Assembly: GCA_964016885.1 (NCBI GenBank)
Contig: OZ024751.1
Location: 23,312,001 to 23,376,000 of the forward strand
Source of the DNA: Eledone cirrhosa
Lineage: Eukaryota
Direction of reading: 5' to 3'
DNA: 64,000 bases
Shown here in pieces: positions 3,235 to 61,362 of the stretch. The position numbers were made by a program, and so were the translations under genes. The notes below the pieces were generated by a model that worked only from the letters and a program-made list of their open reading frames with translations, was not told the origin of the DNA and did not search any database. The number at the start of each line of letters is the position of its first letter. Positions within the stretch are counted from its first letter, which is position 1.

Positions 3235-3417
3235 TAACGAAGGAAATGTGGTAAGGAACCAGATGGACCATAACGCACCAAAGTACTCAATACTTAGGGT
3301 AGTAGAGTGGGTAATAGGAACGAGTAGGACCCCGACGGCTGAGCTCAAGCCGTTTCGATGGCTAATTCTAAGTCGAAACGGCTTGAGCTCAGCCGTCGGG
3401 GTCCTACTCGTTCCTAT
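3235..3417 (-). mobile_element. TAACGAAGG-family tail plus hairpin element carrying a hammerhead 3' half
   Basis: Repeated about 11 times in the window. GAAA cggct-tgagctc-agccg TC ggggtc. Inverted arm ends at (TA)n. Confidence 0.85.
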
Positions 3418-3435
3418 ATATATATATATATATAT

Positions 3436-3776
3436 ATAATATATAAGATCAAAAGATGGTTAAATGAGTTCCATGTATTTTATTATGCGCATTTCAAAAA
3501 CAAATATCATCATGCAATAACATTTGTGTTTTCATCAGATAAAATAGGAAGACATGATATGAAGGTTAAAAACACTTGTGGATAGTGCAGTTTTAAATCA
3601 ACATATTATTGCATGATGATATTTGTTATTGAAATGCGCATAATAAAATACATGGAATTCATTTAACCATCTTTTGATCTTATATATTATGTATACTCCA
3701 GTCCTACAAACTGTAGAGTGCTTCTTATCCGATATCTGCATTGCTTTATTGTACTACAATAAAACTCACCTCCTAC
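3436..3776. mobile_element. Family A Penelope-like module: inverted arm plus direct arm plus tail
   Basis: 3436-3525 mirrors 3601-3690. Tail 3691-3776 recurs in reverse at 36521-36590. Confidence 0.85.
3476..3546 (-). ncRNA. Minimal type I hammerhead ribozyme (family A)
   Basis: Minus strand: tattttat CTGATGA aaacacaaatgttatt-gc-atgatgatatttgttttt GAAA TGCGCA TA ataaaata. 8-bp helix I, palindromic helix III. Confidence 0.88.
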
Positions 3777-3800
3777 ATATATATATATATATATATATAT

Positions 3801-4225
3801 AAACAAGAAGTGTAAGTCAACAGGCTAAAATTAACTTCATTTATTTATATTCAGTTATATATAAATACACACACACGCACACACTCACACACACACGCGC
3901 GCACACACACACACACACACACACACACACACACACACACACACACACACACACACACACACATATATATGTATGTAAACAAGAAGTGTAAGTCAAGAGG
4001 CTAAAATTAACTTCGTTTATTTATATTTACTGTTATATATAAATACACACACACAGACGCACACACACGCGCACACACACACACACACACACACACACAC
4101 ACACACACACACACACACACACATATATATATACACATACACAGAAACAGGCATACACACACACATATATATACACACAGACACACTCACACACACACAT
4201 ATATATATACATACACAGACACACA
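3801..4225 (+). repeat. Tandem duplication of a ~68-bp unique segment plus (CA)n
   Basis: aaacaagaagtgtaagtcaa...tatataaatac at 3801 and 3977. Confidence 0.8.
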
Positions 4226-4682
4226 CAGAAAGGGACCCAGCAGTCAACGAGCTGCTAAAAGAGCTGCTACCAAGATGAAAACTACTGTGAAATCCCACAA
4301 TGAATTTTATACTTGAATTTTCAAATCTCAAATTTTAACTCTTCTTATTAATTTTTCTTAATATTAATCAACATTTGAAAAGATGGCTTTTGCAGACCCA
4401 TCGAAACCGGTCATTTTTTATAGCCTTTATTATTTCCTTACCTTATAAAATTATATGTTTTTTCACAAAAAAGTATTCTGTCTCTTATATATTCCATGTG
4501 CCATTACCAACCTCAATTTTTTCTCTCTCTCTCTCTCTCTCTCTCTCTCTCTCTCTCTCTATATATATATATATATATATATACATACACAAACACACAC
4601 AAACACATACGTGTACTGACACCCCCACACGCAGTTTGTTGTTAAACTCTTCCATATTTATTTAATAGTTGATTCAACTTAC

Positions 4683-4819
4683 TGTCCGTGTTTTCAAATC
4701 TCCATTGACCACAAGTCTTTCAGTTGAGCTATCATACCTCAAATACTCCGTGTCACCCTCGTTCATAAATATTTTATGGGTGTTATCTTTCGGTGGCTGG
4801 AATTGTTGAATTAGGGAAC
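4683..4819 (-). CDS. Coding exon (137 nt, phase 1-0) of the same gene: (G)[45 protein letters not shown]
   Basis: Minus strand reads tttctatttccag|GTTCCC...CGGACA|gtaagt. Phase matches the 27578-27649 exon. GDxxYxxxDxxxxxLxVxxxL pattern resembles the middle of a cadherin repeat. Confidence 0.8.
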
Positions 4820-57468: not shown

Positions 57469-58686
57469 TCTGTAACAACATAATAACAATTGAAGATAAC
57501 CTTCCTCACGACTATCAACAATGTATATATGCTGGGGATGTGTATATAGGTTCTCCAGTGAAGTGCTATATTCGAGGTACCTAGAATACTGCTAAGGCAG
57601 TTCTATCTGTAGCAACATGTTAACAATTGATATGAACCTCATGACTGTCAACAATTTATGGAAGGCGGTATAGCCATGCAGCCCATGTGTGTTCAGTTAT
57701 ATTAACATTTTGTTTATATTTTAGTTACACAAGAATTTCCTGACATTTCATATCTCCAGTTTAAGATTAGATCCAGTTGAAACATAAATATAGAGAAAAA
57801 AAAATTCATTTTTCATCCTATTTTAAACACTCTTAAGTAACTTTTATTACTTTCTTACATAAGTATTATGATGTTGCTTCATGTAAATCATATTTACAAG
57901 TCGTAGTCTATATGTTTATATATTACATAAATATAAATACACATCCATATGTGTATAAATCACTATATCAACACTAAAACACACAAACATACATAATTAC
58001 ATAGAAACACTGATACGTACTTGCATATATACATGCATATATACATGCATATATACATGCATATATACATGCATATATACATAACATTAATAGTTCTCAA
58101 TATTTCAGGATAAAACGATGATGTGGTAAAAGTAATTCAGAGCAGATCTTGAGTGGTTTTTATACTGGCATTTTTGAAGCTGAAAACTGTAGTATTTTTT
58201 CAACGTTAGAAGTAGGGAACAGATCATAAAATATCCTGCTCCAAATTAGTTTCATCAACTCTCCTTTTGAAGAAGGCATTTTATCCCGAAATATTAAAGA
58301 TTTTATTAATAACATTAATATCTTTGTTTCTAGCATTTATTGTCTCATTTGTTTTGCAGGAGGCCTCGAATAAAATACCATATATATGTATTTATGCATG
58401 CATGTATACATTTAAGTGTGTATACACGTATGTACCTGTATATATGTATGTCCTTATGCATGCATGCATATATGACTATGTATAAATGTGTACGTATATA
58501 TATATATATTTATATATATATATTTATTAAAATAACAGATTAAAAGTTTAAGCAAAGAATCGCTGCTTTCACCCTTAACGGGATCTTCTGATATTATATT
58601 TGATATATATTTATCCTTATCTAGCCCTCTTGGGATTTTAGTCTTCAAATATATTATTATTACTATATATATATATATATATATAT

Positions 58687-59239
58687 ATAAAATAAAGTTA
58701 AATAAAAGTCAAATGATTAAAATTTAGCTTCGTTTATTACTGCTATATATATTTCAGTGACAGCCATCTTTGGCTGTGACCTCTTCAGGCAGTTTGAATT
58801 AGTATGGTATAGACAAGTACATATGTTGTTTAGGTGTGTGATATTGTCAATACTCTGATATGCCCAGTTCCTTGTTGGGTTGTTAATTCACTGGGGAACT
58901 GGAGTCATATGACTCCAGTCATATGACTCCAGTTCCCCAGTCAATTAACAACCCAACAAGGAACTGGGCATATCAGAGTATTGACAATATCACACACCTA
59001 AACAACATATGTACTTGTCTATACCATACTAATTCAAACTGCCTGAAGAGGTCACAGCCAAAGATGGCTGTCACTGAAATATATATAGCAGTAATAAACG
59101 AAGCTAAATTTTAATCATTTGACTTTTATTTAACTTTATTTTACACTACTCCGGAGTAACCAAACCAACCTGCGCACTTCGTCGAGTGCTCCAGACTGCA
59201 TACTGAGGTGTTGGTATACAACCAACATAAACTCAAAAT
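58687..59239 (+). mobile_element. Family H palindromic module with hammerheads at 58739-58793 (-) and 59038-59092 (+)
   Basis: Perfect ~220-bp arms around gagtcatatgactc. Tail 59144-59239. actgc CTGAAGA ggtcacagcca-aaga-tggctgtcact GAAA TATATA TA gcagt. Confidence 0.92.
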
Positions 59240-59330
59240 CTCTCTCTCTCTCTCTCTCTCTCTCTCTCTCTCTCTCTCTCTCTCTCTCTCTCTCTCTATA
59301 TATATATATATATATATATATATATATATA

Positions 59331-59513
59331 TAACGAAGGAAATGTGGTAAGGAACCAGGTGGACCATAACGCACCAAAGTACACAATACTTAGGGTAGTA
59401 GAGTGGGTAATAGGAACCAGTAAGACCCCGACGGCTAATTCTGGACTAAAATAGTCCAGAATTAGCCGTCGAAACGGCTTGAGCTCAGCCGTCGGGGTCT
59501 TACTGGTTCCTAT
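59331..59513 (-). mobile_element. TAACGAAGG-family element with a deletion in the left arm
   Basis: Segment between the two gacggct repeats is missing. Confidence 0.88.
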
Positions 59514-61164
59514 ATATATATATATATATATATATATATATATATATATATATATATAAATATATTTATGTATGCATGTATCTATGTATGCATGTATATA
59601 TGAATGTATGTATGAATTTATGTGTGTTGGTATGCTTGAATGTGTGTATGTAAGTTTGTATGTATGTATTTTCGTCAATGTCTACGTGTTTATTGAAGGG
59701 TAATTGTATGATAGGGGAGATAAATATGTAAAGGGTCTTTATATAGACATTTTCTGGTCAAATTCCAACTCTTCGTCAGCTAGATATCTTATTAATCTCA
59801 GTTGTTTGTCAACACTATACATACATCTAACGTAAACAATTAGATCTTTGTATGTGCGTGAGTGTATTTGTGTATGTGTATCTATGTGTATGCCCATATG
59901 CATGTATATATGTATATATGTATGTATTTGTGTACATATGCATATGTGTATGTATGTATTATATGCATGTATGAATGTATTATATCTCACACATATACAC
60001 ACATAAACACACACACATATACACACATACACACATATACATACATAAATATATATATATATATGTATATATATATACACACAAATATACACATATATAT
60101 ATACACACACACACACACAGATATACATACATACACATACGTACATATATATATATATATATATATATATATATATATATATATATATATATATATATAT
60201 ATATAAATATATATATTATATATATATATATATATATATATATATATATATATATATATATATATATATATATATATACATAAATATATATATATTATAT
60301 ATATATATATATATATATATATATATATATATATATATATATTTATACATAAATATATATATATATATATATATATATGGTTGTATACATGCACGAAATG
60401 ATGCGAGAAAAAAACGAACTGAAAACAAACATCATTTCTATGATAAAGAATTCAAGAATATCAGATTAATATTATAACAGTTTAGCCTATGCTGATTATC
60501 TGCAGAATCAGGGAAAGAGGCTTGCCCCCTCACGTATATCAGTATAAATATCTGTTGTCTTTGTAAACAACATATAAATATAGACTTGTATGTGCAACAC
60601 ATGTTATACGTTAATGTCAAGATATAGCAATCACACACACATATACATCTATGTATGTATGTATGTATGTATGTATGTGTGTATGTATGTATGTATGTAT
60701 GTATGTATGTATGTATGTATGTGTGTGTGTGTGTGTATTGATACATATAATGCAAATGTGTATGAATATACTATTAAAATACTCATACAACGACAATTTC
60801 CACACCCAGATAAGTGCAAATCTTTATATATATGTATGTATATATATATGTATGTATATATATATGTATGTATATATATATATATGTTTATATATATATA
60901 TGTATATATATATATATATATGTATATATATATATGTATGTATATATATATATATGTATATATATATTTATATATATGTATGTATATATATATATATATA
61001 TATATATATATATATATATATATACACACACACATATATAGATATATATGTATACACAGGAACATATATATACACACATAATGATATATATAAATATATA
61101 CATATATATATATATATATATATATATATATATATATATATATATATATATATATATATATATA

Positions 61165-61362
61165 TAACGAAGGAAATGTGGTAAGGAACCAGATGGACCA
61201 TAACGCACCAGAGTACTCAATAATTAGGGTAGTAGAGTGGGTAATAGGAAAAAGTATGACCCCGACGGCAGAGCTCAAGCCGTTTCGACGGCTATTTCTG
61301 GATTCCAGAAATAGCCGTCGAAACAGCTTAAGCTCTGCCGTCGGGGTCATACTTTTTCCTAT
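61165..61362 (-). mobile_element. TAACGAAGG-family element (variant)
   Basis: aaaagtatg and ctatttctgga variants are mirrored in both arms. Confidence 0.88.

Follow-up and report, generated by a model that had tools for sequence, protein, structure and literature searches.

In endonuclease-positive Penelope-like elements, insertions have been described in which a direct pseudo-long terminal repeat (pLTR) with a tail lies next to an inverted, 5′-truncated copy (PMC3846280; PMC8557442). The purified protein of the Poseidon element of Anolis carolinensis (PAc) was found in vitro to cut and extend both DNA strands, AT-rich DNA being preferred, and to start reverse transcription at two sites matching both ends of the genomic tail (PMC11167929). 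The origin of such inverted-plus-tail insertions is stated to be open (PMC8557442; PMC11167929). Here, a repeat named family A is described from 64,000 nt of the Eledone cirrhosa genome (assembly GCA_964016885.1, contig OZ024751.1, positions 23,312,001 to 23,376,000, forward strand). This whole stretch is called the window, and all positions below are counted within it. Family A likely consists of 5′-truncated 3′ ends of a Penelope-like retroelement, left as stubs in the known layout, and the evidence supports that both arms of its hairpins derive from one source sequence.

The original prediction had listed about 11 copies, and all 11 places carry family A according to BLAST (matches of 80-200 nt, E 1e-16 or better), which corresponds to about 1 copy per 6 kb over the 64 kb. 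The motif TAACGAAGG is exact at 8 of the 11 places; with one mismatch allowed, the 9-mer was seen 12 times against 8.7 expected, which is not above chance by itself. Most copies had further been said to combine a tail of about 80 bp with a hairpin that stops at TTCCTAT and runs into (TA)n. This description fits seven copies (3235, 27221, 28091, 42419, 46187, 59331 and 61165), in which (TA)n is followed by a 79-nt tail that begins with TAACGAAGG; next come one arm, an apex that varies, and that arm's reverse complement down to TTCCTAT, with (TA)n again at the end; the places 35220, 29510-29617, 44562 and 49391 depart from it. In the complete copies the hairpin is 49-129 nt long, and whole inserts span 128-208 nt without an open reading frame (ORF). 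TA runs, which make up 8% of the window, flank both sides of all seven, and the tail stands at one end only in every one of them (p 0.008 if each end chose randomly). Eight hairpins consist of an inverted 5′-truncated copy adjoining a direct copy. All copies are single or head-to-head, and no head-to-tail tandem units were seen among them. The copies are listed below, with the strand given as the inferred RNA sense of the tailed arm.

3235..3417, minus strand: copy with tail 3235-3313 and hairpin 3314-3417; the tailed arm extends further inward than the tail-less arm.
27221..27428, minus strand: copy of the CCAGTAAG subfamily, with arms identical over 59 nt and the longest hairpin (129 nt).
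28091..28218, minus strand: copy of the CCAGTAAG subfamily like 27221, with a short 49-nt hairpin.
29510..29617, plus (opposite) strand: older single-arm copy, no hairpin, tail cut short, 80.6% over 108 nt.
35220..35301, minus strand: solo tail, ending within 3 nt of the start site of the tail-less arms.
42419..42613, minus strand: copy of the GCAGAG/CTATTTC subfamily, with its apex at a native ATTTC/GAAAT inverted repeat.
44310..44686, plus strand: right part of the 46187 insertion duplicated in inverted orientation, comprising flank, (TA)n and a tail-less hairpin at 44562-44686.
46187..46383, minus strand: copy used as read-mapping reference; the start of the tail-less arm corresponds to 46266.
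49391..49541, minus strand: divergent copy, outer tail end missing and outer arm mostly deleted, ending TTTTCC(TA)n.
59331..59513, minus strand: copy in which 23 nt of the tail-less arm, between direct repeats, have no counterpart in the tailed arm.
61165..61362, minus strand: copy of the GCAGAG/CTATTTC subfamily with a 1-nt loop.

The tail lies on the left in 9 of the 11 copies (p 0.065), or in 9 of 10 when the duplicate is left out (p 0.02).

The anatomy was followed into sequencing runs by mapping four of them on one tail-plus-arm, and thus single-arm, reference taken from the 46187 copy. X1 comprises contigs of the likely source sample and X5 contigs of another organism, while X6 and X7 are raw Illumina restriction site-associated DNA (RAD) reads from two samples of another study, with 23,478 and 24,300 reads mapped. 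Reads leaving the reference at 46266 into (TA)n numbered 3535 in X6 and 3076 in X7, so that the tail-less hairpin end is present there at the family level; absence of the hairpins from a second platform had been named in advance as the sign of an artefact. A pile-up at 46319 (7226 and 7369 reads) probably marks a restriction cut at AATT. The reads that leave the reference at 46266 start at 46319, since 150 minus 54 gives 96, the median of their loose length, and tail-less arms would then make up about 42-49% of the arms read from 46319, a share that matches one tailed and one tail-less arm per insertion. Joints of opposite strands, leading from the tail side at 46228-46260 to 46323-46326, were present in X6, X7 and X1. 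The AATT cut keeps most X6 and X7 reads from crossing the apex, and the read support applies to the family rather than to single loci. In X5 a diverged relative was met in 280 contigs, mostly less than 95% alike and with a different tail end.

Like the complex insertions of Penelope-like elements, family A shows a head-to-head inverted copy, a one-sided tail, 5′ truncation and palindromes at the inverted junction, in a microsatellite target that hides target-site duplications. It differs from them in its short insert of 128-208 nt without an ORF, its tail of 79 nt instead of 30-40 nt and its 11 copies in 64 kb. With PAc it shares two fixed element ends bounding the tail and an AT-rich target, and the two-start-site biochemistry would give the family A layout; in contrast to PAc, neither a protein nor a complete hammerhead was identified for it, and the main text of PMC11167929 models no joining of inverted arms. 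Naiad, including Naiad_Obim and Naiad_Ovul, is described with a (TA)n target, an inverted copy plus tail and no canonical hammerhead (PMC8557442), and the (TA)n preference is found in 7/7 complete family A copies. However, the 'HHR_half_core' of Naiad is the first core half in the 3′ untranslated region (PMC8557442), whereas family A shows the second half. The Naiad protein is marked by an N-terminal GIY-YIG, a CxC motif and a DKA motif, and no protein was found for family A. Five short family A motifs had no match in the supplement of PMC8557442, in which line breaks can hide short motifs. Non-LTR retrozymes (bioRxiv 10.64898/2026.07.22.740005; PMC7229834) are likewise short non-coding mobile sequences derived from Penelope, but theirs are described as head-to-tail tandem units with complete hammerheads, in contrast to the single head-to-head pairs of family A. 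The layout is already published, and family A is an abundant further example with a long tail and half a hammerhead.

The earlier assignment to the Penelope layout, with an inverted tail-less and a direct tailed copy, is backed by this anatomy, by the literature and by three sister families with hammerhead cores. These families share the plan in the window, with tails of about 90-100 nt, and each contains CUGANGA, a stem, GAAA and a short palindrome. For the stretches at 59030, 3470 and 36640, which belong to two families, stems I and II form in the fold as expected, and the 49255 stretch gave no clear fold. By motif and predicted folding, the sister families appear to carry the minimal hammerhead described in Penelope-like repeats (PMC4209133). 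In family A the corresponding feature is the following.

3375..3397, plus strand: hammerhead-like 3′ half in the arm, made up of GAAA, a stem of 6 bp whose loop is palindromic, and a GUC triplet.

This sense-strand arrangement corresponds to the 3′ half of a type I hammerhead and arose in 4 of 5000 shuffles, for a motif chosen after it had been seen. RNA folding of a single arm was no better than that of shuffles (z 0.21). Membership of family A in the Penelope-like elements is based on layout and not on a protein, and several results weigh against it. Family A has half a hammerhead only, and the CUGANGA half was not detected in any copy by motif scan. Rfam searches showed no hammerhead, not even for the sister-family cores, among the matches listed, which in one search were 150 of 249. 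No ORF for a reverse transcriptase (RT) or a GIY-YIG endonuclease was found in the window, an open frame of 46 aa across arm and tail had no credible match in protein searches, and the tail is about twice the published length. Among the marks of endonuclease-positive Penelope-like elements are an ORF with a telomerase-like RT and a GIY-YIG endonuclease, direct partial-tandem pLTRs around a body and, in canonical clades, a type I hammerhead in the terminal repeat; the copies seen in the window are stubs. That frame is open in 5/5 intact tailed arms, the other two frames having stops, and common variants are silent in it slightly more often (15/35) than in the others (11 and 10). The sole weak protein match (E 8e-5), to a tandem-repeat product, was judged spurious, and these results were not accepted as evidence of coding. 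Nor does family A have the structure of a miniature inverted-repeat transposable element (MITE), which is bounded at both ends by terminal inverted repeats: on one side, 79 nt of unpaired tail extend beyond its inverted repeat. The listed Rfam matches on hairpins and TA repeats were sub-threshold and of microRNA type. Exact-pattern scans found no match in metagenome contigs or in prokaryote genomes, and the 120 loci met by a 15-mer scan of viral contigs were taken as chance matches.

The sister families occupy the following places, given without strand.

49985-50373 and 58690-59239: second family (B), tail plus hairpin, its arm containing a minimal hammerhead predicted to be complete; the two copies share the palindrome at which they turn, and over 452 nt the 58690 hairpin is 99% perfect.
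48888-49363 and 11935-12176: third family, also with a hammerhead core; in the 11935 copy a tail fragment of 50 nt runs straight into an inverted arm, 99.4% identical to the arm of the 48888-49363 copy, and a direct arm is lacking.
3439-3776 and 36525-36742: fourth family, again with a hammerhead core, whose tail-less arms both stop at the same inner position; in the 3439 copy the tailed arm falls short of the tail-less arm by about 80 nt.

Comparison of the eight family A arm pairs in the window gave a distance of 0.036 between the arms of one copy, against 0.099 between tailed arms and 0.101 between tail-less arms of different copies. The clustering of left arms with left arms across copies, which had been considered as the contrary outcome, is thus not seen. 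It had been proposed that variants private to a copy are mirrored in both arms. Mirroring is borne out by 17 alignment cells that differ from the majority in both arms; privacy is not, since 14 of the 17 are common to another copy in the window, and among X6 reads covering their positions the three remaining variants reach shares of 14.2% (27.3 kb), 6.0% (42.5 kb) and 30.2% (61.25 kb). All 17 are therefore subfamily variants. In the nearest-neighbour list, arms from different copies of a subfamily often lie no further apart than the two arms within a copy, and arms pair by subfamily, not clearly by copy. Arm-specific differences were present in six of the eight hairpins and amount to 14 cells, five at CpG and four due to alignment effects at edges or junctions; none of the 14 was common to copies on the same side. 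They look like decay after insertion. Because the subfamily variants are all mirrored, none being one-sided and common on the same side, and because arms pair within copies (3.6% versus 10% divergence), derivation of both arms from one source sequence is supported. For the same reason, namely that variants mark subfamilies and one-sided differences are never common on the same side, each subfamily has had its symmetry rebuilt at least once from a single arm. Rebuilding at every insertion may be inferred from the differing apices of 27221, 28091 and 59331 within one subfamily.

Loops do differ among all eight hairpins compared, as originally noted. One case bears on how such differences arise. 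The segment 44310..44686 matches the 46187 insertion with 104/104 identical flank positions and microsatellites in the same order, and the apex of its hairpin at 44562 is 12 nt longer than that of 46187. Since one duplicated insertion thus has two apices, at least one of them likely changed after insertion. Loops in general likely also erode in this way, and loop differences are weaker evidence than they look. The arms of 44562 and 46187 differ at 4/57 positions against 0/104 in the flank (p 0.015), two of the four being CpG changes, and a more complex origin of these differences is possible. The local inverted duplication is about 370 nt long (44310-44686 and 46327-46610, 1.6 kb apart), contains the family A hairpin with host flank, and ends in a small TA-centred palindrome. 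Of the earlier proposal that one arm was templated from the other in each copy, the single source sequence stands, but the proof offered fails: the variants are not private, and at least one loop difference likely arose after insertion.

The favoured explanation, to which we give an even chance, is twin priming, in which the two ends left by a cut in a TA repeat would each prime at one of the RT start sites on either side of the tail. The TA repeat would be cut on both strands by a GIY-YIG endonuclease provided in trans, and each cut 3′ end would pair over 2-3 nt (TA/ATA) with RNA and prime reverse transcription, one at the outer and the other at the inner end of the 79-nt tail. Both arms would likely be copied from the same source RNA sequence, giving a head-to-head pair; the two inward cDNAs would join via short inverted repeats near the 5′ limit of the RNA and extend on each other, and stalling of the outer enzyme at the inner start site would yield a tail-only side. 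After insertion the arms would gain one-sided CpG changes, and the apex would be trimmed by deletion. Twin priming accounts for the fixed inner end and, if one RNA is used by both, for exactly one tail per hairpin. It can also yield a result that fold-back by itself could not: in 4/14 copies from four families the tail-less arm contains sequence that is missing on the tailed side, namely 23 nt in 59331, about 80 nt in 3439 and, in 11935 and 36525, an inverted arm of about 150-180 nt to which a tail fragment is directly joined, a direct arm being absent. The solo tail 35220, which stops at the inner site, is also counted for it. More tentatively, and with rather less confidence, one RNA segment may be copied twice per insertion, an inner and an outer RT being primed from the two ends of one cut and the outer displacing the inner cDNA. 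If true, this inner/outer double-copying rule covers the one tail per hairpin, the mirrored arms, the solo tails and the copies with a tail fragment plus an inverted arm.

Other observations speak against twin priming. In 7/7 complete family A copies the tailed arm equals or exceeds the tail-less arm at the apex (four longer, three equal), and one family B copy has a deletion in the tail-less arm. Later deletion could mimic every asymmetric copy, and the 44562/46187 pair indicates that deletions happen. The joints of opposite strands seen in the reads fit twin priming and fold-back alike.

The strongest alternative is the cDNA fold-back suggested in the original prediction, which is not singled out by the data and is possible though somewhat unlikely. 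Here the first-strand cDNA, started from the tail end, would snap back by its 3′ end on a short inverted repeat and be copied backwards, the copy ending at the tail boundary when it is resolved by an endonuclease or when synthesis switches to the TA target. Such a process predicts the equal or longer tailed arm of the complete copies, and it agrees with apices at the native ATTTC/GAAAT repeat (42419) and at A/T runs (44562, 59331), and with the palindrome at which both family B copies turn. In 2013, palindromes at junctions led to a proposal of self-priming (PMC3846280), and the tail has been ascribed to endonuclease resolution (PMC8557442). Nevertheless, fold-back alone cannot give a tail-less arm with sequence missing from the tailed side, as in 4/14 copies; it needs an extra step, a stop at a 3-nt ATA match though (TA)n lies 79 nt further; and the private variants offered as its proof are not private.

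Alternatively, a ready-made master with tail and hairpin might be copied whole, in the manner of a short interspersed nuclear element (SINE) or a MITE, with symmetry renewed occasionally and the apex eroding after insertion. The status of mirrored variants as subfamily variants, the two apices of the duplicated insertion 44562/46187, and the one common apex kept by family B copies about 11% apart would suit such a master. It would, however, transmit one-sided changes, and 0/14 one-sided cells are common on the same side; same-subfamily copies (27221, 28091, 59331) have unrelated apices, and a one-sided tail misfits a DNA transposon with terminal inverted repeats. This origin is regarded as improbable. 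Finally, the hairpin family is not an assembly artefact at the family level, because its fixed tail-less end recurs in thousands of Illumina reads from another study, and a library or assembly fold-back artefact has almost no likelihood left: on the single-arm reference none of the listed reads or contig pieces extends across an entire hairpin locus, and the likely source runs X1-X3 are not independent, but the fixed end and the opposite-strand joints appear in raw reads of two samples of that study, the same layout is found in four families, and one-sided decay in six of eight hairpins is unexpected for fresh library fold-back.

The short, dense copies with subfamily markers in both arms make twin priming and fold-back separable by counting. 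Many short hairpins in the Eledone cirrhosa genome, possibly labelled MITEs or microRNA precursors by repeat tools, are probably retroelement stubs. The annotation of Octopus vulgaris includes 190 Penelope-like families covering 6.83% of the genome (PMC13282606), and family A may already be catalogued in the repeat library of that species; its motifs had no match in the supplement of PMC13282606, which contains no repeat library. Literature searches on Penelope, including octopus and cephalopod studies but with subscription papers mostly outside their reach, returned no paper on family A or on a two-ended model.

Besides these families, further inverted-repeat elements occur in the window at 2463-2772, 12194-12444, 41661-41763, 4976-5522 and 6683-7203, and the element at 4976-5522 surrounds a minus-strand core, at 5193, that is hammerhead-like. 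A 180-nt SINE-like repeat, often in tandem, is very abundant (5694-5880 and about 20 other places). Minisatellite arrays were noted at 30975-32305 and 47049-48134; one consists of about 17 copies of a 76-nt unit, and the other, near 47-48 kb, is GC-rich. A non-LTR retrotransposon protein fragment at 22361-22585 matches RT-bearing animal proteins at 58-67%, and another at 13746-14177 is presumably the C-terminus of a long interspersed nuclear element. An exact 150-nt direct duplication lies between microsatellites at 40128-40277 and 40412-40561.

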